The notes under the pieces: generated by a model
Told to the model about the DNA's origin: nothing
Database searches by the model: none
What the model saw: only the letters and a program-made list of their open reading frames with translations
Assembly (NCBI GenBank): GCA_964016885.1
Contig: OZ024740.1
Coordinates: 425,134,001-425,198,000, forward strand
Direction of reading: 5' to 3'
Length of the DNA stretch: 64,000 nucleotides
Source: Eledone cirrhosa
Lineage: Eukaryota
Program-made: the position numbers and the translations under genes
Shown: positions 4,789-48,063 of the stretch, piece after piece
How positions within the stretch are numbered: the stretch's first letter is position 1
How the letters are laid out: the number at the start of each line of letters is the position of its first letter

Positions 4789-6254
4789 TTGCATTTATCT
4801 TGCTTTATGTTTATACGAGTTATCACCAAGTCACAACCAGTGACCTCAAGAGACAACAAGGTCCGCCATGTTCAAGAAAGAACACACATATTCACACATG
4901 CATCCTTAGTGTTTAGACTTGTGATGTACTTATATTGACAGGATCTTCCTTAGTATATGGGCAGTTCCCATTAGTACTATCTTTTGTATTTCTCCTATAC
5001 GCGGGTTTCCTGGGATTTGCGATAAGTAGTCGTTAGACCCCTTAGGTATCATTCCCAGAGCGCCTACAACCACTGGTATTGTTTTAGTTCTCAATTTCCA
5101 CATTTTTCCAATTTCTATCTCCAGGTCCTTATACTTGCTCAATTTTTCAAATGTTTTTATAGATACATTCTTGTCTATTGGAACAGACATATCAATTAGC
5201 AGGCATACCCTCCTTTGAAAGTCCTTCAATATTATATCAGGTCTATTTGCATCTATTTTTCGGTCTGTTTGGATGCTAAAGTTCCACAAGATTGAGATGT
5301 GATCTTTTTCAAGTATGGGAAGTGGTTGATGCTCCCACCAATTCTTTTGATGGGGCAGGTCAAAATGCTTACACATTATCCAATGTATGTATTGTGCAGC
5401 TCTGTCATGCCTGTTTAGGTATTCGGTTGGAGCTATAGGACTGCACATTGAAATTATATGGTCAATGGTCTCTGGTTGTTTTTTGCATACACGGCATAAT
5501 GGGCTGCACCCATTTTTTATTATGTTGGCTTGGTAATTTTTTGTTGGCAGACACTGATCTTGTGCGGAGATAATCAGTCCTTCAGTCTCCGATTTCAGTC
5601 CAGAGGATGCCAACCACTGATGGGTTAAAGTTTTGTCAACATCAGGATTGTTAGCTCGCTCTGGGTATTTTCCATACAGAGGCTTTTCTTGCCATTTCTT
5701 AGCCAGTTTCTGTAGCAGTTCTTTCTTTGCAGTTACTTTTACCTGCTTTGCTTTTTCTGTGTTTTCCATTTCAGCAGTAAATGGGACTTCTGAAATTTGT
5801 AGTCCATTACTGTATCTTTGTGCATCTTTTGTAATGGAATATGATCTTTTGGTGCTTTCGTGTTTCAAAACGAGTTTGATCATCCAATCATGTGATTCCC
5901 TTAGATATGTGGATAATCCAATTGTTGCAGTTTTCAACGCAATGTCTAACTGGATTAACCCACGTCCTCCTTCTTTCCTAGGGAGATATATTCTATCTAT
6001 GTCTGCCTTAGGGTGATGCATTCTGTGCATGGTTAAGAATTTTCGGATTTTTGTATCGAGCCTACGGATCTCTGTGCTTGACCAGTTGATGACATTGTAA
6101 CTGTAGGTTACTACTGGTATGGCAAGCGTGTTTATGGCATCGATCCTATTCCTTGCATTCAATTCCGTTCTTAAGATTGCTCTGACTCTGCGGTAACATT
6201 CCTTCCTTATCCTTTCCCTCATTGTCGAGTGCTTGATTCCGTCTCCTTCACAAA

Positions 6255-6256
<2 letters not shown>
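4789..6256 (-). mobile_element. 5'-truncated R4/Dong-clade non-LTR retrotransposon inserted in (TAA)n
   Basis: Flanked on both sides by (TAA)n. Encodes RT thumb, CCHC and restriction-like endonuclease. Dong-type elements are known to target TAA repeats. Confidence 0.85.
4930..6256 (-). CDS. Dong/R4 C-terminal open frame: RT thumb, CCHC and PD-(D/E)xK endonuclease
   Basis: YLPRKEGGRGL, CRVC..ETIDHIISMC, YLNRHD, RPDIIL..LIDMSVP, KLSKY. The N-terminal M and poly-N of the called ORF come from the flank. Confidence 0.85.
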
Positions 6257-6302
<46 letters not shown>

Positions 6303-6316
6303 ACATATATATATAT

Positions 6317-6908
6317 GGTGGCTGCCAACTCGTTTTCGAGTACGGCCACTACTTTATATCCATGTAGGAGAACCCCTACCGATGCGCTGAACGAGTGTGA
6401 CTTTTTAGTCCAGCCAGCGACTTGAAAACTCTGGTACAAACACTACACTTGTGACAATTATTGATACATAGTGCTGGGCCCATGGTACCATGTGACAACA
6501 AGTGCAGAGAGCTCTCCAGATATAAAGCAATGCCTGCGCCGGGAAGCTTTTATAGTGAGCAAAGGCACTGCACAAAGCCAGTCCCACTCTCTTAACCAAG
6601 ATGATATTTACCAAAAAGAAGAACAAGTCAACATCATTGGATACCATCAGGGTTGCAGGTGTTATATCAGAGTTTTCCTTCTCCTAGAATTCTGCCTTGA
6701 CAAAGGCTAAGGGGTCATCTATCCCGGTGATTTTGGATGGCCATTGACTCTTAAGAGCTCCTTTGCCTTTATACAGGTTTTGTTTTTAGTTCTGCAGGAT
6801 GTCCAAACTCAGCCTCCTCACCAAGAAACCTTGGTGGGGTTGTCAGTTTAGTCGCCAACGACCCGACCATGAGACAGGTTGTACTGGGTTACATGTTACC
6901 AGTAGCAC

Positions 6909-15775: not shown

Positions 15776-16056
15776 ATCTCTCTCTCTATATATATATATA
15801 GAGAGAGAGATAGAGAGATAGATAAATTTCTATTTATTTGCCACGAGGGCACAAAAGGAGGGGACATTTACACAGTGGGGGAGTTTACATAAATCGAGTA
15901 AAGAAAAAAGGAATAGCAATAATAATATAACAATAAAAAGTCCTCAAAAGGGAGGGGGCGTGTTGGGGATTGCACATACCCCCGAAAAGTGTGCAACTCT
16001 TTTCGCGGGGGAAGCCCAGAGAGGAGGCGCTCCCCCTTTCCTCTTCACTTCTTCAC

Positions 16057-19000
16057 CTACAGAACAATGTAGAGAGAAGGCCCATTTACACGGGCCATTC
16101 TCGCTTCTTTCACCCACCTTTCATAAAACTGTCTGGGACCAAGCACTTCTCTCTCCATCCTGATCCTTCTTCCGAAGTGGTATCGGAAGAAGTAAACCAG
16201 GTGATGGCCGGAGAGAAAGTCACCCGACCTCAGACCTTTCAGGCGCGTCCACCACACAACCTCTTTCATCATGGCTATTACGCACAGAAAGACCGCCTCT
16301 GCTTCATTTCTGAAGGGAGGAGGCGGCTTGATGTTCACCACAGACTCGACGGTTAATCGAATCGGCGCCACACGCGACAGCAGTCGTTCGACGTAGCCCC
16401 ACAGATCGGCAACGCCCGGGCAGTGTACCAGTGCATGCGCAACGGTTTCCTCGTCGCGCACGCATCTGGGACAGATCTTTTTCACGGGATCCCTGCCCGG
16501 GCGCCCGTGTCTGTTCTTTTACGCACACAGTTCTACCGAACAGGCTGGCCAGTTCGTCCTCCTCCATGCCTAGCGACTCTCCAAGGGTGTCGTCGCCCTT
16601 GCTAGCCACCAACCCTCTATAGAATGTCGAGGTGGATTCTCCACTGACAGTCGGGTCCGCTTGCCAGATAGCCGTGAGCGCCTGGGCACACTCGGTGTGC
16701 CAGTTGCCTAGTTTTCTCGGTCTTTGCTTCACCCAGGATTGCAGTTCGGTGAGCGAGACGAGCTGTGGGAAGGCTCGCCTCACAAACGGGGCCCACACCG
16801 GCTGACCGTTGAGGAATACCTGTAGATGCCGTAGCCTCAATGCGTGCCTACGCATCAACAGCCACGGCATACCCAGCCTCCTTTCGAAGGGTGCTGGCAG
16901 CAGATGGATCTCCTCACCATGGGAGGCCGCTTCTTCCAGAGGAACTGGAAGAGCATGCGTTCCATGATGGTGAGCTTTTCCTTGGGGCAAGGCACGACGG
17001 TCAGGCGGTAGTAGATGACGGACGCTATGTAAGCGTTCGTCACCTCCGCCCGACCTTTCAGTGATAGTTTGCACTTGGCCCACTTCTGGGTCAGCGCAAA
17101 CACCCTGCTCGTCACCTCGCCCCAATTCTTCTCCACCTGGAGGTCCGGTCCGAACCAGACCCCGAGCAGCTTCACTGGGCCCTCCGTCCACCGCCCGACG
17201 ACACCGTCTAACGGCATCGGTTTGCCCCTCCACGTTCCGAGTTGCAAACCGACTGACTTGTCCTGGTTCAGCTTAGCCCCCGTCAGCCTTTCGTATTCCT
17301 CCAGTAGGGTGGCGATCGCCCCGATTTCCGAGGCGTCCGCCACCATTACTGTTACGTCGTCGGCATAGGCCGAGACCGCTTTGTGCAATCCCAGTTCCAG
17401 GGGTATGCCCCGCAGCAACTCCAACTTCCGCAGCAGTGGCTCGAGAGTCAATACGTACAGAAGGGAGGAGAGGGGGCACCCCTGTCTGATGGATCGGGTG
17501 ATTTGAAACGGCTCCGAGAGGTAGCCGTTTACTTTAATCCTAGAGTAGATGTTGCCACTGTGCATGGCAGAAATCCAGCCCCTGAAAACGGGTCCGAAGC
17601 CCGCCGCCGCTAGCACCGCATCCAGGTAACCATGGTCGACCCTATCGAACGCCTTAGATTGATCCAAGTTGATCAGGGCCCCACCAAAGCCGGGTTCGTA
17701 GCCAACCCTCTCTATGATGTATCGCATGAGGTGGAGGTTGTCGTGAATGGACCTGGACGGGATAGCGCATGTCTGCGCGTCTCCCACCAAACCACCCACC
17801 ACAAGCGCCAACCTCTTCGCCAACACCTTGGCCAAAATCTGTAACTCTGCATTCAGCAGAGTTATGGGCCTAAAGTTACTTAAGTCGTCCCCCTTGCTCT
17901 CGTCCTTCCTCACTAGCGTGACCACGCCCTTGGTCACAGAACAGGGAATTCTCCCGTTCTGTTGCCAGTTGCAATAGACAGCCTCGAGGAGTTCGGAGAA
18001 CAAGACCGGCATAGCTAAATAAAGTTCGTATGGTAGACCATCGAGACCCGGGGATTTGCGTCTGCTGCATTGGCTGAGCGCTTCCCCGATTTCAGTGGCT
18101 GCGATTGGCCTTTCGCAGCACTCCGCTTCGCCGCTCGAAAGACGCGGTAGACCGTCGAGGTATGGACCGAAGTCCACATCCCCGTCCGGCCCCCCGCCAC
18201 GTCCGAACAGTCGAGCAAAGTGCCTTTGAAAGGTCTCGCACATTCGCTCAGGTTCAAGGATCACCCGTCCATCCTGGTCTCGCAAAGACCGAATGGTGGA
18301 TTTAATCCCACTCTTGGCTTCTGTCACGCGGGCCCAGCTAACAGCTTTGATCCCCTCGTTTCCTAAAGCACGTATTTTACTTCGGACAACGCAGCCTTCG
18401 TGCTTCGCGTCAAAGAACTGGCTCAACGCCGTTCTCGTCGCTAACACTCTGGCTACGTCTCCGCTCCTAATCGCCTCTTCTAGTTTATCTGTTAACTCCC
18501 TTTCCTTCCTATTTCTATTCGCCGCTAGTTCCTTACTGTAACCTATCGAACTTACTCTAATCTCTGTCTTTAGAGATACCCACCACCTCCTGTTGACGAT
18601 CGCTCCCGTCAACCGCATCTTAACTAAGCTACTAATCCGGTTTCTGTAATCTTTCTTTGTCGGTAAGGACAAGTTCATCTTCCAGTAACCGGGACCCTGT
18701 CTATGCGTTCTATCAAGGTTGACCACGCAGGTCACTAATTTGTGATCTGAATAGCCAACCATGATCAGTTCTGGACAACTAAATACGTCCCTATCCTTAC
18801 TCCTAACCAAAAACCTATCTAGGTACGATCTAGATTGTCCACTGCGGTTTGCCCAGGTCCAGGTTGGCGCAGTTGGACAATCTAGTCGAAATCTATCGAC
18901 CAGGTCGAATCGATCGAGTAACCCCTTGAGGCTGCTACACCCCCCTCTATCGGGACATGCCCCTGCATAGTCCCAACGCGCATCTAGGATTCCATTCCAG

Positions 19001-19432
19001 TCCCCCACTAAAAGCAGGGAACGCGACGTTCCTAGAAAAGTCTCCAGACGCTGGAAGAAGTCGGCTCTTTCCGCCCCGAAGGGAGCATAAAGACCGACCA
19101 GTCTGAAAGCCCCGCCTTCACCGCCTCCGACGTCCAGCACCAGTAATCGACCCCCCGGGTCCGAGTGAACAATCTGTACGTCGAGAGTCAGACGTTTATC
19201 CAGCAGTACGGCAACTCCCCCCCCCCCCCCCCCCGCCTCGGGGTTGACAGAGAGATGCGTGCATCTCAAAGTCATCGAAGGCGGGCGCCAGCTGTCTCAC
19301 GCTGCTGATCCGACTCTCGCAAACAACCATCACATCTATACTTTGTGACCTGAGGTCACTTAGAAGCTTTGCTTGCTTCCAAGCTGAGCCCAGGCCACGC
19401 GCGTTCAAACAGCCAACTCTCAATTGATCTAT
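16057..19432 (-). pseudogene. Tx1-C ORF2, disrupted
   Basis: ATA at the position where B has ATG. Frameshifts at ~19250 and ~16870, and an ~87-bp deletion with filler at ~16515-16530. RT motifs (YADD) intact in 16855-19275. Confidence 0.9.
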
Positions 19433-21265
19433 TTTGGTGTTGAAAGTGAAGAAAGAAAAGCACTTACCTCTCCGGGTTGCGTAATTTCCATGGCATCAGG
19501 TGTGTTAGGTGGAGGGATGTTTTGTGGTGGTGTGGGGGTACACGTGTGTGGTGGGGTTGGGGTATTTGGAGTTGTGTCAGGGAGAGGGGCGGTTATGGGG
19601 AAATCTTTCAAGAGGACGCGATTCAACGGTTTTAAACAGGGGGGGGGGGGGGCTCACGTCCCGTCTAAATTGTTCTTTTAAGGAACGATAAAGGTCCAGA
19701 GGGACCTTTATCATTTTTAAATGGGTGAAGTTCTCTGTTGAGATAAAGTTTGGCCCTTCGGTCTGCACCATAGGGTTATTGTTTATTAACTTAACCAGTT
19801 TTTTGTTTTCTTTATTTATATATGTGTATTGCAACGTCTTTTTTTGTGATGCTGTCAATGTTTCGGAGAGGGGAGGCGCAGATTTATTTTTGTTTGTTGA
19901 GGGTGGGGTGTTTTTGATTGGAGTTGGTGTTTGTGTGTGGGTTATTTGTGGTGTGCTGGGTGTGTGTTTTCTTTTTTTTCTTTTAACTTGTCTGAAGGCT
20001 TCTCCTCCTTCTTCTTCAGAAGTTGGGGGAAACTCTTCAGCGCTAGGTGGGAGGGACGTGTTGTGTGGTTGTTTTTTTTTTGCGGGAGGGGTAGATTTGT
20101 TACTGTTTTTTTAATTATTTGTTTGGAATGGGTTTTGTGGTGGTGGTGGTAATGTTTGTGTCGTGCTTGTGGTTGGTGATGGTGGTGTTTGTGTTGTGGT
20201 TGGTGGTGGTGATTTTTGTGTCGTGCTTGTGTTTGGTGCTGGTGGTGGTGATGTTTGTGTTGTGTTTGTGGTTGGTGGTGCCTGTATTTTGTTTGCTGTG
20301 TGTAGTATTAGTGTATTTTTGGAGATGGGTGGTGTTGGTGTACTATTTGTGGTGGGTGTGGGCAATAGTCCTTTTTGGAGGATACGTTTCGGGCAGTTAG
20401 CCTTAACGTGTCCCCTTTCCATGCATAAATAGCATGCTGGTCTTCTCCCCTCTACAATTATGTCTATTGGGGTAAGGTCATCCAGCCAGATGCGATCCGG
20501 GATTTGTGCTATTCTTTCGGGCCTCATTTGGACTAGTATGTCGAGGCCCATTCCCAGGAACGCATCTCCAGTTGCCTTCCCCATTGACAGCATTGTGTCT
20601 TCGCCCATATCAATGAAGCCAGCAATAGCCCACCAGAAGTCCATTGTGGGCAGCATTGTTTTTACTTTTACTCTCTGTGTTCTTCTACCCATGTAGGAGG
20701 GATAGAAGCTATATGTTGTCGATGAGAGTGGGCTTAGGGAAAGCTTCTCCGCCGTTTCCCTGTCTCTTGTTAGGACCGAAATGCTGCCATAGAGTCGGTC
20801 CTTTCGTATGAAGAGAATATTCTTCATATAGTCTTTTAGGACTAACTCTATTTCCATTTGGCTGGGCTGTGCTGGCTTTCTTGTCTGGTTCAGTATAGTT
20901 CTGTAGAGAACTGTGTTTTCTGCTCTGGCTTTCTTGAATTCTGGGGGGGGGGAGTTAATAGAAAACATTCCGTTCTCCCCCAAAACAATGTGTTTCTTTG
21001 CTTCGGCCAGTTTTTCTCTGGCGGCAGTTAGGTCAATTGGTGTGTATGTAATGGATTGTTTTGTTTTCTGGGCGAAAGTTGCCCTGTTGTTATTTGTATT
21101 ATTTTCTGTTTGTTTGTTTTCTGTTTGCTCATTTTCCTTAACATTTGTTTTTTCATTTTCTTTGTTTGTTTCATTGTCTTATTTTGTTGTAATTATTTTT
21201 TGTTCTTCAGACTTGGGGGGCGTGGCAGAGCTAATGGCAGACATGTCTGCCATCTTTTCCGCCAT
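19429..21265 (-). pseudogene. Tx1-C ORF1, frameshifted
   Basis: Start MAEKMADMSA at 21265 and knuckle CYLCMERGHVKANC. Pieces 20111-20983, 19577-19858 and 19429-19626 are homologous to B ORF1. Confidence 0.85.
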
Positions 21266-21466
21266 GCTGCCAAGAAAGAAATTTTTCGGCAAAAATAGAT
21301 ATTTATTTTACCCCCTAAAAAGGGGGTAAATGCAAAAATGTTTCCCTAAAAAACAGCGGTTAGTGTTCCAAATGTGTTGCACTGAAAAATTTATCCGGTA
21401 CTTACAATAGTAAGGGTAAATCCCGATGGAATAGCGGAGCCGATGTGAAGCGTGTCTTACTCTATC

Positions 21467-21497
<31 letters not shown>

Positions 21498-27401: not shown

Positions 27402-28919
27402 TTTTTTAAGGCAATGCAAGCAACAACTATCTAATAATTAAATGATCATAGTGAATCGGTCCGACAAAGGTGTCAGTCAGACAGACAGTCAGACAGTGTC
27501 ACAGTCGGTGCGACAAAGCGATCGATGCGATTAAAACAAATTTAACTCACATGTTTACCTATATTTTCGCAAACTATTGATAGATTGGTACAAAAAATAG
27601 CTTTGATAATAAACATAAATTTTTAACGAAGTATTTAAAAAGCATTTTAGCAGTGAAAAGTGAAGTAATGTTTCACACTGACGCAAGTAGGGCCGTTCAG
27701 AAATGACGTAGTCAATTAGGAGGAGGGGATTCGGCGATTTGACTACATTTGACTAACGTAATCACAATTACAAGAGTTCCGCCGAAAAAAATGCGTCATT
27801 TCTGGATTACCTCTCCTAGCGTCACGCTTACTACTCACTCACTTGAACACAAGATTTATCAGCAAACTTTGATTATAAACTTTTTTCCCGCTGGACCAAA
27901 TTTCTAGATTTTTAAGCCAAAAGATGCGAAATGATCTACTGTTCATGCTCATATAAGTTTTATATCAGTTAAATAAAGGAGAGCCGCGCTGTACTGTCGT
28001 AAACAGACGATTGCCAACGAAAACACGACCACAACAATATTACTAAACGGACTACCGCCCGTTTAGGATATATACTCAAACCCATGCGTACACACATACA
28101 CACACACATATCTGTATTACTAAAACAGAGAATGTCTGTTTGTCTGTCTGTCTGACCAATCACTAAAACTCGAGAACCACCCAACCGATTGTTTTCAAAT
28201 TTTACACATGTAATACTTATGGTCCTATTGAGTGTTTTGAGCAAACAAATTCATGTTTTCAATACCCTAGGGACCGAATTAGGCGATTTAGCGATCTCTT
28301 TCACTCTCTCTTAGTCTTTCTCTTTTTAGACACATACATACATATTACGTCGCGCCATTATAATATCTATCTGTATGCCTTACTGTCTGCATTACGTCAT
28401 TATGACGCGATCAGTGTGTGTGTGTATATATGTATATATAGTGTGTATGTATATATATATATTCTTATGCCAGGGAACATCTTCAAGAACCAAAGTATCG
28501 TCTTCCTGTTTTCCTTCGGTAGCAACGTTTTTCGAAATATTTACTTCTGCGTTCACAGATTTATTATTTTAGTTTCAGAAGATCCCGTTAAGGATGAAAG
28601 CAGCGATTCTTTGCTTATACTTTAATCTGTTATTTTAATATATAGTAATAATAATAAATTTCAAGACTAAAATCCAAAGAGGGCTCGATAAGGATAAATA
28701 TATATCAAATATATAAGAACCGTAGAGCAAATATTTATTAAAATAACAGATTAAAGTTTAAGCAAAGAATCGCTGCTTTCACCCTTAACGGGATCTTCTG
28801 AAACTAATAAAGTCAATCTGTAAACGCAGAAGTGGATATTTCAAAAAACGTTGCAACCGGAGGAAGACAGGAAGACGATACTTTGGTTCGTGGGAACGTT
28901 CCCTGGCAAAGAACGGGAA

Positions 28920-29826
28920 AAAGCCGAATGATACGCTTAATTACATAAGTAAGCATTCCAACCATCCTGCCAGCATAACCAAGAACCTGGTAAGAAACGT
29001 TTCGTTGAGGCTTTCCCGTCTATCTACTAATGAGCATATTTTCAACGACCATTCCACTTATTACAATGAAGCTCTTGCTCGGAGTGGATTTGTCGATAAG
29101 GTAGCATATACAGAGTACAAAAATCGACCTAGAAGAAATAGATCCCGTCGCATTTATGGGTATAACCCACCATATAATATGGAGGTGGCCACACCATTAG
29201 CTAAGAGCTTTCTTTCCCTTATTACGAAGCATTTTCCCCCTACACATAAATATAGTAAAATTTTTAATAGAAATACTATTAAAATTTCTTACTCTACGAC
29301 TCCTAACCTTGCACATAACATCACAGCTTCAAATTTAGCTAAACTACCTAGCCGTAGGAACACGTGCAACCCTGTAGTTAGTACTAACTGTAATTGTAGG
29401 AATCGGGTTGATTGCCCCCTATCCGGGAAATGCCTCTCTAATAACATTGTCTACAAATGTAAGGTTGAAACACCCACGTCCCGTAGGGCCTACATAGGGT
29501 TAACCGCCAATAGATTCAAGCAGCGTCTTTACATGCATACCCATTCTTTTCGTTACCCTCTAAGAAGGAATATGACGTCACTTTCAGCTTATATCTGGAG
29601 TCTAAAAGACAACCTCACCCAAAATAAGTTACACTGGGAGATCCTGGCTAGGGCTAGATCGTATAACGGAAATAAAAGACCATGTGACCTCTGCGCCGCT
29701 GAGGCCCTGGAAATACTCTACGCCGCAGTCCACATCTTAAACAAAAAATCTGAGGCAATTTCGGCTTGTAAACATAAATTGCACAAAACTTTCCTGTATT
29801 ACAGCCCCCCCCCCATTATACCCTAA
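28920..29826 (+). CDS. Penelope RT thumb plus GIY-YIG endonuclease (truncated)
   Basis: KPND..YISKHSNHP, YNPPYN, KISYSTTPN, CNCR...CPLSGKC..NIVYKC...YIGLT..FKQR...H...CDLC..E. Confidence 0.9.
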
Positions 29827-44659: not shown

Positions 44660-47600
44660 CAGAAGTGTGATCTTCGTTGACCAGATTAACCCAGAAGTGT
44701 GATCTTCGTTGACCGGATTAACCCAGAAATGTCATCTTCGTTGACCAGATTAACCCAGAAGTGTGATCTTCGTTGACCAGATTAACCCAGAAATGTGATC
44801 TTCGTTGACCAGATTAACCCAGAAGTGTGATCTTCGTTGACCAGATTAACCCAGAAATGTGATCTTCGTTGACCGGATTAACCCAGAAATGTCATCTTCG
44901 TTGACTAGATTAACCCAGAAGTGTGATCTTCGTTGACCAGATTAACCCAGAAGTGTGATCTTCGTTGACCAGATTAACCCAGAAATGTGATCTTCGTTGA
45001 CCGGATTAAGCCAGAAATGTGATCTTCGTTGACCGGATTAACCCAGAAATGTCATCTTCGTTGACCAGATTAACCCAGAAGTGTGATCTTCGTTGACCAG
45101 ATTAACCCAGAAATGTCATCTTCGTTGACCAGATTAACCCAGAAGTGTGATCTTCGTTGACCAGATTAACCCAGAAATGTGATCTTCGTTGACCGGATTA
45201 ACCCAGAAATGTGATCTTCGTTGACCAGATTAACCCAGAAGTGTGATCTTCGTTGACCAGATTAACCCTGAAATGTCATCTTCGTCGACCAGATTAACCC
45301 AGAAATGAGATCTTCGTTGACCGGATTAACCCAGAAATGTGATCTTCGTTGACCAGATTAACCCAGAAGTGTGATCTTCGTTGACCAGATTATCCCAGAA
45401 GTGTGATCTTCGTTGACCAGATTAACCCAGAAATGTGATCTTCGTTGACCAGATTAACCCAGAAATGTGATCTTCGTTGACCAGATTAACCCAGAAGTGT
45501 GATCTTCGTTGACCAGATTAACCCAGAAATGTGATCTTCGTTGACCAGATTAACCCAGAAGTGTGATCTTCGTTTACCAGATTAACCCAGAAATGTGATC
45601 TTCGTTGACCAGATTAACCTAGAAGTGTGATCTTCGTTGACCAGATTAACCCAGAAATGTGATCTTCGTTGACCGGATTAACCCAGAAATGTCATCTTCG
45701 TTGACTAGATTAACCCAGAAGTGTGATCTTCGTTGACCAGATTAACCCAGAAGTGTGATCTTCGTTGACCAGATTAACCCAGAAATGTGATCTTCGTTGA
45801 CCGGATTAAGCCAGAAATGTGATCTTCGTTGACCGGATTAACCCAGAAATGTCATCTTCGTTGACCAGATTAACCCAGAAGTGTGATCTTCGTTGACCAG
45901 ATTAACCCAGAAATGTCATCTTCGTTGACCAGATTAACCCAGAAGTGTGATCTTCGTTGACCAGATTAACCCAGAAATGTGATCTTCGTTGACCGGATTA
46001 ACCCAGAAATGTGATCTTCGTTGACCAGATTAACCCAGAAGTGTGATCTTCGTTGACCAGATTAACCCTGAAATGTCATCTTCGTCGACCAGATTAACCC
46101 AGAAATGAGATCTTCGTTGACCGGATTAACCCAGAAATGTGATCTTCGTTGACCAGATTAACCCAGAAGTGTGATCTTCGTTGACCAGATTATCCCAGAA
46201 GTGTGATCTTCGTTGACCAGATTAACCCAGAAATGTGATCTTCGTTGACCAGATTAACCCAGAAATGTGATCTTCGTTGACCAGATTAACCCAGAAGTGT
46301 GATCTTCGTTGACCAGATTAACCCAGAAATGTGATCTTCGTTGACCAGATTAACCCAGAAGTGTGATCTTCGTTTACCAGATTAACCCAGAAATGTGATC
46401 TTCGTTGACCAGATTAACCTAGAAGTGTGATCTTCGTTGACCAGATTAACCCAGAAATGTGATCTTCGTTGACCAGATTAACCTAGAAGTGTGATCTTCG
46501 TTGACCAGATTAACCCAGAAATGTGATCTTCGTTGACCAGATTAACCCAGAAATGTGATCCTCGTTGACCGGATTAACCCAGAAATGTGATCTTCGTTGA
46601 CCAGATTAACCCAGAAGTGTGATCTTCGTTGACCGGATTAACCCAGAAATGTCATCTTCGTTGACCAGATTAACCCAGAAGTGTGATCTTCGTTGACCAG
46701 ATTAACCCAGAAATGTGATCTTCGTTGACCAGATTAACCCAGAAGTGTGATCTTCGTTGACCAGATTAACCCAGAAATGTGATCTTCGTTGACCGGATTA
46801 ACCCAGAAATGTCATCTTCGTTGACCAGATTAACCCAGAATTGTGATCTTCGTTGACCAGATTAACCCAGAAGTGTGATCTTCGTTGACCAGATTAACCC
46901 AGAAATGTGATCTTCGTTGACCGGATTAAGCCAGAAATGTGATCTTCGTTGACCGGATTAACCCAGAAATGTCATCTTCGTTGACCAGATTAACCCAGAA
47001 GTGTGATCTTCGTTGACCAGATTAACCCAGAAATGTCATCTTCGTTGACCAGATTAACCCAGAAGTGTGATCTTCGTTGACCAGATTAACCCAGAAATGT
47101 GATCTTCGTTGACCGGATTAACCCAGAAATGTCATCTTCGTTGACCAGATTAACCCAGAAGTGTGATCTTCGTTGACCAGATTAACCCAGAAATGTCATC
47201 TTCGTCGACCAGATTAACCCAGAAATGAGATCTTCGTTGACCGGATTAACCCAGAAATGTGATCTTCGTTGACCAGATTAACCCAGAAGTGTGATCTTCG
47301 TTGACCAGATTATCCCAGAAGTGTGATCTTCGTTGACCAGATTAACCCAGAAATGTGATCTTCGTTGACCAGATTAACCCAGAAATGTGATCTTCGTTGA
47401 CCAGATTAACCCAGAAGTGTGATCTTCGTTGACCAGATTAACCCAGAAATGTGATCTTCGTTGACCAGATTAACCCAGAAGTGTGATCTTCGTTTACCAG
47501 ATTAACCCAGAAATGTGATCTTCGTTGACCAGATTAACCTAGAAGTGTGATCTTCGTTGACCAGATTAACCCAGAAATGTGATCTTCGTTGACCAGATTA

Positions 47601-48063
47601 ACCCAGAAATGTGATCCTCGTTGACCGGATTAACCCAGAAATGTGATCTTCGTTGACCAGATTAACCCAGAAGTGTGATCTTCGTTGACCGGATTAACCC
47701 AGAAATGTGATCTTCGTTGACCGGATTAACCCAGAAGTGTGATCTTCGTTGACCAGATTAACCCAGAAGTGTGATCCTCGTTGACCGGATTAACCCAGAA
47801 ATGTGATCTTCGTTGACCGGATTAACCCAGAAGTGTGATCTTCGTTGACCGGATTAACCCAGAAATGTGATCTTCGTTGACCAGATTAACCCAGAAATGT
47901 GATCTTCGTTGACCAGATTAACCCAGAAGTGTGATCTTCGTTGACCAGATTAACCCAGAAATGTGATCTTCGTTGACCAGATTAACCCAGAAGTGTGATC
48001 TTCGCTGACCGGATTAACCCAGAAATGTGATCTTCGTTGACAGGATTAACCCAGAAATGTGAT
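44660..48063. repeat. 32-bp satellite array, ~106 monomers, with higher-order repeats
   Basis: Unit AGAA(A/G)TGT(G/C)ATCTTCGTTGACC(A/G)GATTAACCC. Diagnostic variants recur at 800 and 1120 bp. Confidence 0.97.

Follow-up and report, generated by a model that had tools for sequence, protein, structure and literature searches.

A constrained 5' splice-site motif at the end of ORF1, and a predicted long-range helix around ORF2, in Tx1-like LINEs of Eledone cirrhosa

Introduction

Among the closest described systems are Kibi and Koshi, non-LTR retrotransposons of the Tx1 clade that target microsatellites (PMC4494074). They share with the element analysed here two ORFs, an APE-RT-zf ORF2 and insertion into microsatellites, but differ in the repeat units, and neither a conserved donor nor an ORF2-enclosing helix is seen in the available part of that account (PMC4494074). 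As regards the donor itself, the Arabidopsis Ty1/copia element EVD also carries a conserved U1-type site at the boundary of its structural and enzyme genes and U1 protects its unspliced full-length RNA by blocking premature termination (PMC5580714). EVD, however, belongs to the LTR elements; its short intron is proven, and it has a proximal poly(A) site (PMC5580714). The Eledone element is a LINE for which no splicing is shown and a helix spanning 3.4 kb is predicted over the donor. Human L1 likewise has splice sites within a LINE of the L1 group, and its spliced RNAs (SpIREs) can leave genomic copies; that splicing takes place in the 5'UTR/ORF1 and gives products called dead ends that do leave copies (PMC5860796). 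In the Eledone element, by contrast, a donor under selection marks the end of ORF1, and the search described below gave no spliced copy. Finally, an unspliced RNA bearing a consensus 5' splice-site motif undergoes nuclear retention in human cells, where the motif is presented as a quality-control mark on misprocessed mRNA (PMC4380460). The Eledone element bears the same kind of motif on an RNA that it must export, and masking in cis is predicted.

LINE RNAs must stay unspliced, exit the nucleus and yield far more ORF1 than ORF2 protein. In the literature searched (titles and beginnings of abstracts, outside subscription papers and Repbase reports), neither a conserved donor nor an ORF2-flanking helix is described in a LINE. 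We have analysed one such element, copy C, together with its relatives; "the window" refers to the whole 64,000-nt stretch of the E. cirrhosa genome in which it lies.

Copy C and its family

Copy C, a broken element, belongs to a young subfamily of microsatellite-targeting Tx1-like LINEs (Table 1). Its donor-side 22-mer is carried by 379 genome copies, and the whole family exceeds 8,000 copies. As in the L1 group/Tx1 clade, an APE endonuclease, an RT and a C-terminal zinc-binding region (PF03372, PF00078 and PF13966) were found in ORF2 of copy A and of locus L176, and the best PDB match of ORF2 is human L1 ORF2p (E 3e-48, residues 5-854). A separate upstream ORF1 with a CCHC knuckle (C-x2-C-x4-H-x4-C) is present in L176 (589 aa), the zf-CCHC match having an E of 0.017, which does not reach Pfam's cut-off. 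In most of the 43 loci inspected, the ends adjoin subfamily-specific microsatellites, namely (ATT)n, (TATC)n, (TGTC)n or (TACC)n. The Tx1-like placement is based on ORF layout, ORF2 domains and target preference. A lineage of 42% identity (P0002-P0012) was not found in the present genome, and no Rfam family matched above its gathering score, the single match lying in ORF1 (E 0.068; 23.5 bits vs. a threshold of 80).

Table 1. Features of copy C, in positions of the window
Feature	Positions	Strand	Remarks
Copy C, full-length but broken Tx1-like non-LTR retrotransposon inserted in (TATC)n	15824..21468	minus	from sequence and 379 copies sharing a 22-mer
(TATC)n target microsatellite, 5' side	21469..21497	minus	
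ORF1, one CCHC knuckle, Pro/Thr-rich C-half	19429..21265	minus	stop near 20111 and homopolymer frameshifts in copy C
5' arm of predicted helix (ORF1 end, donor, spacer, ORF2 start)	19418..19476	minus	
5' splice-site consensus GAG/GTAAGT	19462..19470	minus	first intron base 19467; likely U1 snRNP site (putative)
Pyrimidine-rich stretch, donor to ORF2 start	19433..19461	minus	inter-ORF spacer elsewhere, last ORF1 codons in C
ORF2, APE endonuclease, RT and zf-RVT	16057..19432	minus	frameshifted in copy C
Predicted local hairpin at ORF2 end	16074..16101	minus	adjoins and partly competes with the 3' arm
Acceptor-like ORF2 end (pyrimidine tract in last codons, stop TAG)	16057..16080	minus	
3' arm of predicted helix (last codons of ORF2 with the stop, and the first ~42 nt of the 3'UTR)	16015..16073	minus	
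3'UTR	15824..16056	minus	AATAAA at 15838-15833, then microsatellite, without poly(A) tail

The copy C ORF1 crosses the donor in phase 0 and ends at a TAG (19431-19429), the unspliced C-terminus being PGE-VSAFLSSLSTPK-stop. In the top-scoring C copies, a long open ORF1 frame passes the donor in phase 0 (478-563 codons open in 15 of 30 loci), and in L176 and L177 the whole ORF1 is open in this way. ORF2 starts with ATA in the C subfamily vs. ATG in the others, and the ATA of C overlaps the ORF1 stop. ORF1 is A-rich, and AATAAA recurs ~315-350 nt upstream of the donor.

The donor motif at the end of ORF1

The donor CCC GGA GAG/GTAAGT given in the preliminary description was found at its place on the minus strand, and the 14-nt indel relative to copy B is real, the distance from the upstream ATGGAAATT to the donor being 24 vs. 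38 nt. Of the 261 GTs in the element, this one scores highest; compared with 70 host donors it falls at the 97th percentile, and it matches the host consensus of a U2-type 5' splice site. Just 7 of 1173 other 65-nt windows contained a site that equals the weakest of the junction donors. The motif is kept in 28 of 30 loci sampled in order along the genome, in all 30 D-type loci and in 14 of 14 hand-picked subfamily representatives. The ORF1 phase at the donor is 2 in A, B, F and G, 1 in D and E, and 0 in C and D2; because the motif is kept across representatives in all three phases, it is constrained at the RNA level, independently of the reading frame. Between positions -2 and +6, four parsimony changes were counted vs. 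13.6 expected from fourfold sites (P ~0.004, or 0.03 when the anchoring GT is excluded), and all four fall at positions tolerated in host donors.

Beyond the family, none of 27 distant L1/Tx1 loci on metagenome contigs had a donor match of at least 7/9 within 100 nt upstream of ORF2, and a first metagenome scan gave no match. No second conserved 5' donor was evident among the subfamily representatives. Most of them are predicted to fold into a local hairpin that covers the donor, with a z below -2 in only 2 of 14.

A predicted helix around ORF2

At the level of sequence, the flanks of ORF2 are complementary in a lineage-specific manner: the two arms, 3.4 kb apart, can pair over about 45-90 bases and carry lineage-matched changes. 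When the donor-spacer segment was compared with ~500-770 windows of the same element, its best partner lay at the ORF2 stop in 10 of 12 representatives (D3, L163, and B4, L076, which are without 3' ends, are not among the 12). When cognate and non-cognate arms of seven lineages were compared, cognate pairing in the outer part ranked 12 and 3 of 5040 permutations, and that in the inner part 17 of 5040, ranks that are not true probabilities since purine- and pyrimidine-rich strands pair easily and the seven lineages are related. The inner consensus has 171 of 204 cells paired and 5 of 17 pairs changed on both sides; one of these two-sided changes, C-G to U-A, was seen in A and A2, the lineages that lost the AG, and concerns the first base beyond the stop. 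In this consensus, the ORF2 start codon sits opposite the stop codon, and the ORF1 stop always lies within the 5' arm. The ORF2 start of C is predicted to pair with its own 3' arm at -25.1 kcal/mol vs. -8.9 to -17.5 with the arms of six other lineages.

With local structure allowed, no background window of ORF2 binds as well as the arm in 10 of 12 representatives. The outer duplex reaches a z of -2.8 or lower against shuffled partners in only 6 of 12, being weak in B, B2, B3 and G. Whole-RNA folding produced the helix unprompted in A, D and E (3/6); the minimum-energy folds of C, C2 and B2 (3/6) did not form it, forcing it in copy C costing 16.5 of ~1650 kcal/mol. Donor positions +2 to +4 stay unpaired in the helix as predicted for B, C and D. 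As for the distant L1/Tx1 loci, the helix was found in 0 of the 21 used (2 of 23 were skipped), the best rank being 10 of 348.

The acceptor-like end of ORF2

An acceptor, CCTTCTCTCTACATTGTTCTGTAG/GTGAAGAAGTGA, in which the ORF2 stop TAG (16059-16057) supplies the AG, is present in copy C as claimed. It had been called strong, and it does rank first of 260 AGs downstream of the donor, but the word is overstated for a site at the 24th percentile of 70 host acceptors; seven other representatives lie at the 2nd-10th. In C, G, B2 and B3, few or no AGs downstream of the donor outscore the AG of the stop codon as an acceptor (rank 1-3 of ~260). A competing AG occurs just upstream in B, B2 and B3, and the stop-codon AG is lost in A and A2. 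The acceptor is absent from the commonest subfamily. Taken together, it is not a U2-type 3' splice site of host quality throughout the family. (In the splice-site scoring, winB was not caught by the 3' pattern.) The ORF2-as-intron architecture that the preliminary description gave for C does not extend to copy A, whose ORF2 ends in TAA.

The acceptor of C scores better than synonymous recodings of PSLYIVL (P=0.008); in all, just 1 of the 9 TAG-ending representatives outscores its synonymous recodings. Over the 12 representatives, third codon positions changed 1-5 times, the third base of the stop once, and positions +1 to +3 twice each, vs. a neutral yardstick of 1.7 parsimony changes on average at fourfold sites. 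The acceptor therefore evolves at about the neutral rate, without constraint. Thus, of the earlier idea that the site is kept for splicing and not for protein, the RNA-level constraint is borne out at the donor, but not at an acceptor that drifts and disappears in A and A2. The pyrimidine tract of C is predicted to pair with the purine-rich start of its own ORF2, a pairing that accounts for the tract without splicing, and better than splicing does.

Search for spliced copies and products

Spliced, ORF2-less genomic copies were not found in six subfamilies, using patterns that left out A2, F, B3-like variants and junctions starting with GTA. Among the 379 copies of the C subfamily, the exact junction and a third base other than A both occurred 0 times (the C copies among the matches listed, the first 100 of 379, all read GTA), and the acceptor-side search gave 4 matches, all point changes. 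The A subfamily gave 2351 canonical matches and 58 others (55 read whole and 3 by three letters), none of them spliced, and neither were the matches obtained for B (7), D (7), E (11) and G (8), whose subfamily totals were not counted. The deviant matches had arisen through point changes, through deletions that were small or internal, or through inversions. Two loci considered as spliced copies were rejected, L100 being a chance match within another repeat and L361 a double point change. This absence is weak evidence if an ORF2-less RNA is poorly mobilised in trans.

A protein search with ORF1, aimed at spliced C-termini, found no relative. Contigs from four runs of unrecorded kind (one study) were compared with positions 15835-21050, and none of the 15 joints shown, of 93, had the proposed ends. 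In run X4, which is not on record as RNA, one contig runs across the donor (19247-19593) and one across the acceptor (15937-16425). Depth in X4 relative to X1 is ~20-fold higher over ORF1 bins than over ORF2 bins; since contig depth cannot rank the parts and X4 is not recorded as RNA, these run data weigh neither for nor against splicing.

Discussion

We favour, at a probability of about 0.5, the reading that the donor is a putative U1-binding site which the long-range helix masks in the finished RNA, ORF2 being likely kept and not spliced out. During transcription of ORF2, U1 snRNP would bind the exposed donor, shield the long transcript from premature cleavage and mark unfinished transcripts for nuclear retention. 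Once the 3'UTR is transcribed, the helix could form and would likely mask the donor, covering it together with the exon side of the stop-codon AG, so that full-length unspliced RNA may escape both splicing and retention. That C seems to have an acceptor would then be a by-product of its stop being TAG and of the pairing of this region with the purine-rich start of ORF2. Since ORF2 holds just 0-1 AATAAA in three intact copies, it is not obvious why the RNA should need protection from premature polyadenylation. Splicing-out of the whole ORF2 enzyme gene is unsupported so far.

It is possible, though doubtful, that ORF2 is a regulated intron. Some transcripts would then be spliced from the donor to the stop AG or, in lineages in which this AG is weak or missing, to an acceptor in the 3'UTR; the result would be an ORF1-only mRNA, in a ratio set by the helix. 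The donor is placed exactly so that splicing spares nearly all of ORF1, and the product would stop within 1-3 codons in C, E, G and D2, each in its own phase. In copy C, it would end at once in PGE-VKK-stop (3 codons), as had been predicted, because the long ORF1 frame crosses the donor in phase 0. The rank of the stop-codon AG (1-3 of ~260) in the B/C/G clade, 3'UTR acceptors of 9.8-14.7 bits in A, F and D2, and the GAG-only mRNA that Ty1/copia elements make by splicing (PMC5580714) speak in the same direction. Against these stand an acceptor that is neutral, lost in A and confined to the 2nd-24th host percentile, a product that in B2, B3 and F would run on past 50 codons, and a helix that links the 5' end of the intron to the downstream exon, a geometry that hides the sites rather than bridging them; no spliced retrocopy appeared in 379 C and ~2,400 A copies, though spliced RNA would retain the whole 3'UTR. 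Accordingly tentative is the broader proposal that a LINE treats its whole RT gene as a switchable intron, with a self-encoded RNA clamp of 3.4-kb range setting spliced ORF1-only mRNA vs. full-length template; if true, this would be a retrovirus-like expression strategy, which was not found for LINEs in the literature searched. Splicing over shorter distances looks improbable in an EVD-like form, where splicing to an acceptor in the early part of ORF2 and subsequent premature polyadenylation would yield ORF1-only RNA. EVD is a direct precedent (PMC5580714), and A, A2, D, D2, E and C2 have a site near +660 to +715 with a score of 4.5-8.1 bits. This site does not exceed the 10th host percentile, however; recoded controls contain acceptor-like sites as often as ORF2 does or more often, and ORF2 has almost no AATAAA. 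A mini-intron of 30-53 nt that begins at the donor and ends at an AG close to the ORF2 start would fuse ORF1 to ORF2, for which the AG in the fifth ORF2 codon gives an in-frame join in phase-2 lineages and F offers a 47-nt candidate of 10 bits. We hold it to be very improbable: neither nearby AG is in frame in C (phase 0), the spacer varies in length, and an RNA that keeps ORF2 should retrotranspose, yet no such copy was among the matches read.

Rather unlikely in our view, as the sole explanation, is a helix acting in translation, which would hold the ORF2 start beside the stop, be unwound by ribosomes ending ORF1 and govern reinitiation or recycling at ORF2; the donor-like motif would be conserved as part of this element and need not bind U1. 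The consensus position of the ORF2 start opposite the stop, the constant location of the ORF1 stop in the 5' arm, and the overlap of this stop with ATA in C, which lacks an ATG, as in termination-reinitiation, are in keeping with it, and SART1 and L1 ORF2 use such mechanisms (PMC5972666). However, it is the partner that varies, through wobbles and mismatches, and the donor side that keeps to the U1 consensus; C has GTAAGT vs. GTAGGT in its sisters G and C2, which costs a pair, and a consensus held at such a cost points to a partner in trans. The two can coexist, the translation model being compatible with the masked donor.

A donor under selection, together with a co-evolving helix around ORF2, offers a small, mutable switch for the study of U1 protection, of export licensing of complete transcripts, or of a subgenomic ORF1 mRNA. 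The terminal amino acids of ORF2 can be dictated by RNA pairing, and strong donors have been seeded by the thousands across the Eledone genome.

Splice-like sites at the two ends of ORF2

The preliminary description of copy C, a minus-strand Tx1-like LINE related to copies A and B of the window, had placed a donor (GAG/GTAAGT) at the end of ORF1 and an acceptor in the ORF2 stop TAG, the whole of ORF2 forming the intron. This account proved largely right, and both sites were found at those positions. A strong acceptor kept for splicing was not supported, and what underlies the pattern is a richer RNA element. Of the 30 loci picked in order along the genome, 28 keep the donor, as do all 30 D-type loci and all 14 chosen representatives; it shows four changes across its eight positions vs. 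13.6 expected, and is absent from distant L1/Tx1 elements (0/27). As ORF1 reaches it in all three phases across lineages, it cannot be explained by the need for a stop codon or for a particular residue, and the donor is under RNA-level selection.

Both sites were scored with host splice models, for which motifs were sampled in the surroundings of 70 myosin-head exons; the models converged on canonical GT-AG motifs. The donor of copy C falls at the 97th host percentile, and the junction donor is the top GT in 10 of the 12 subfamily representatives (second or third in the remaining ones). The acceptor of copy C, described as strong, only attains the 24th percentile, with the 7th to 10th in B2, B3 and G and the 2nd to 5th in D, D2, E and F, while the ORF2 of A and A2, the commonest type, terminates in TAA, without the AG. 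Its synonymous positions and flanking bases evolve at a neutral rate, and it exceeds synonymous recoding in C only (1/9). All this leaves its maintenance for splicing unsupported, although in copy C no other AG downstream of the donor scores higher than this one, a point for ORF2 as an intron.

Predicted helix across ORF2

In 10 of the 12 representatives, the best partner of the donor-spacer region within its own element is the ORF2 stop region. When the two fragments are folded together, 45-88 pairs are predicted in a shared register. Here the ORF2 start faces the ORF2 stop, and the predicted partners of the bases preceding the start are the G of TAG and the following base. Among the 5040 permutations of arms between lineages, the cognate matching takes ranks 12 and 3 in the outer part of the helix and rank 17 in the inner part, ranks which are inflated by the relatedness of the lineages. 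In A and A2, the loss of the AG is accompanied by a joint change on both sides, and the pyrimidine tract of C pairs much more strongly with the ORF2 start of C itself than with the arm of any other lineage. No such partner was found in 21 distant loci. Whole-RNA folds form the helix in A, D and E; against it count its failure to form in B2, C2 and C, and the weak shuffle z-scores of half the representatives.

Copies A (in the window) and A2 (locus L062) have near-identical ORF2s (4% at fourfold sites) and different ORF1 types. Their identity starts ~50 nt upstream of the donor, close to the helix arm's outer boundary and not at the splice point.

Proposed donor masking and alternative explanations

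Whereas the strand opposite the donor drifts, the donor itself keeps to the U1 consensus. This points to a partner acting in trans, the simplest candidate being U1. The donor is exposed during transcription of the 3.4 kb of ORF2, and can be covered only once the 3'UTR emerges. U1 would load on it during elongation, by analogy with EVD, for which such loading is shown (PMC5580714). The helix would then mask the donor, so that only complete RNAs escape the retention caused by an exposed 5' splice-site motif (PMC4380460). Pairing the beginning of the intron with the exon that follows it, the helix would hide both sites rather than bridge them.

Two other roles are compatible with donor masking: the helix may act in ORF2 reinitiation (compare PMC5972666), and a regulated minor splice may yield an ORF1-only mRNA, both being less probable. 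Since spliced L1 RNAs (SpIREs) can be copied back into the genome (PMC5860796) and an ORF2-less RNA keeps its 3'UTR, such RNA might retrotranspose as well. Genomic exon ends lacking the following intron were thus searched for in six subfamilies. No spliced copy was found among the 379 of C; A gave 58 exceptions beside 2351 canonical copies, and B, D, E and G gave 7, 7, 11 and 8. The exceptions read all came down to mutations, deletions, inversions or chance matches, none being spliced. The missing copies are a moderate argument against a whole-ORF2 intron and a strong one against a mini-intron, since ORF2 would be retained in the product of the latter. In one F-lineage copy (L073), the spacer from the donor to +47 resembles an entire 47-nt intron: it contains a branch-like motif, and a 10-bit acceptor stands right before the ORF2 ATG.

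Copies of the element and other features of the window

Copies A, B and C are 71-81% identical to one another. Copy C is full-length but broken and belongs to a young subfamily: all 40 matches scored against its donor region reach ~100% identity, and its donor-side 22-mer is present at 379 genomic places. ORF1 carries a single CCHC knuckle; ORF2 has APE, RT and zf-RVT domains, human L1 ORF2p being the nearest solved structure. In the 3-Gb genome, whose composition suggests that the host may be a cephalopod, 8,366 occurrences of an ORF2 start motif were counted, and three clades differ by 43-51% at fourfold sites. Subfamilies terminate in AATAAA plus a lineage-specific microsatellite, like the Tx1-clade Kibi and Koshi (PMC4494074). 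Full-length elements also form head-to-tail arrays at ~5.84-kb spacing, with at least eight in one run (e.g. G000:C1:423365110-423418069, and many others), likely because each insertion terminates in its own target repeat.

In open-frame C copies, ORF1 crosses the donor in phase 0 and terminates 13 codons further on, its TAG overlapping an ATA at the position of the other subfamilies' ORF2 ATG (as in loci L176 and L177). This ATG is missing throughout the C lineage, though some copies have both frames open, and the overlap suggests non-AUG termination-reinitiation. C copies that are otherwise near-identical have poly-C/poly-G runs of very different lengths, as a result of slippage or assembly error, and these disrupt many reading frames. 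The 18-nt filler of the ORF2 deletion in copy C is a templated insertion.

The contig depth ratio between X4 and X1, two sequencing runs of unrecorded kind, is far higher over ORF1, maximal in its A-rich 3' part, and drops ~75-170 nt before the donor; possible causes are truncation of the ORF1 RNA and oligo-dT capture at internal sites, between which contigs cannot discriminate.

Positions of features in the window
Feature	Position	Strand	Remarks
Copy C	15824-21468	-	ORF1 and ORF2
Donor of copy C	19467	-	first intron base
Acceptor-like TAG of copy C	16059-16057	-	ORF2 stop
ATA/TAG overlap	19432-19429	-	ORF1 stop
Filler in ORF2 deletion	16530-16513	-	18 nt identical to 15731-15714, ~100 nt beyond the 3' end of copy C
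Poly-C/poly-G runs	21259-20930, 19654-19641, 19234-19217	-	ORF1, early ORF2
High X4/X1 depth ratio	19489-20184		A-rich 3' part of ORF1
472-codon open frame	4930-6348	-	between copies A and B; resembles the C-terminal region of ORF2 in a different LINE, with a weak zf-RVT
345-codon open frame	28789-29826	+	no Pfam match; presumably resembles a Penelope-type GIY-YIG region
32-bp tandem unit	44660-48063		106 copies, 94% match
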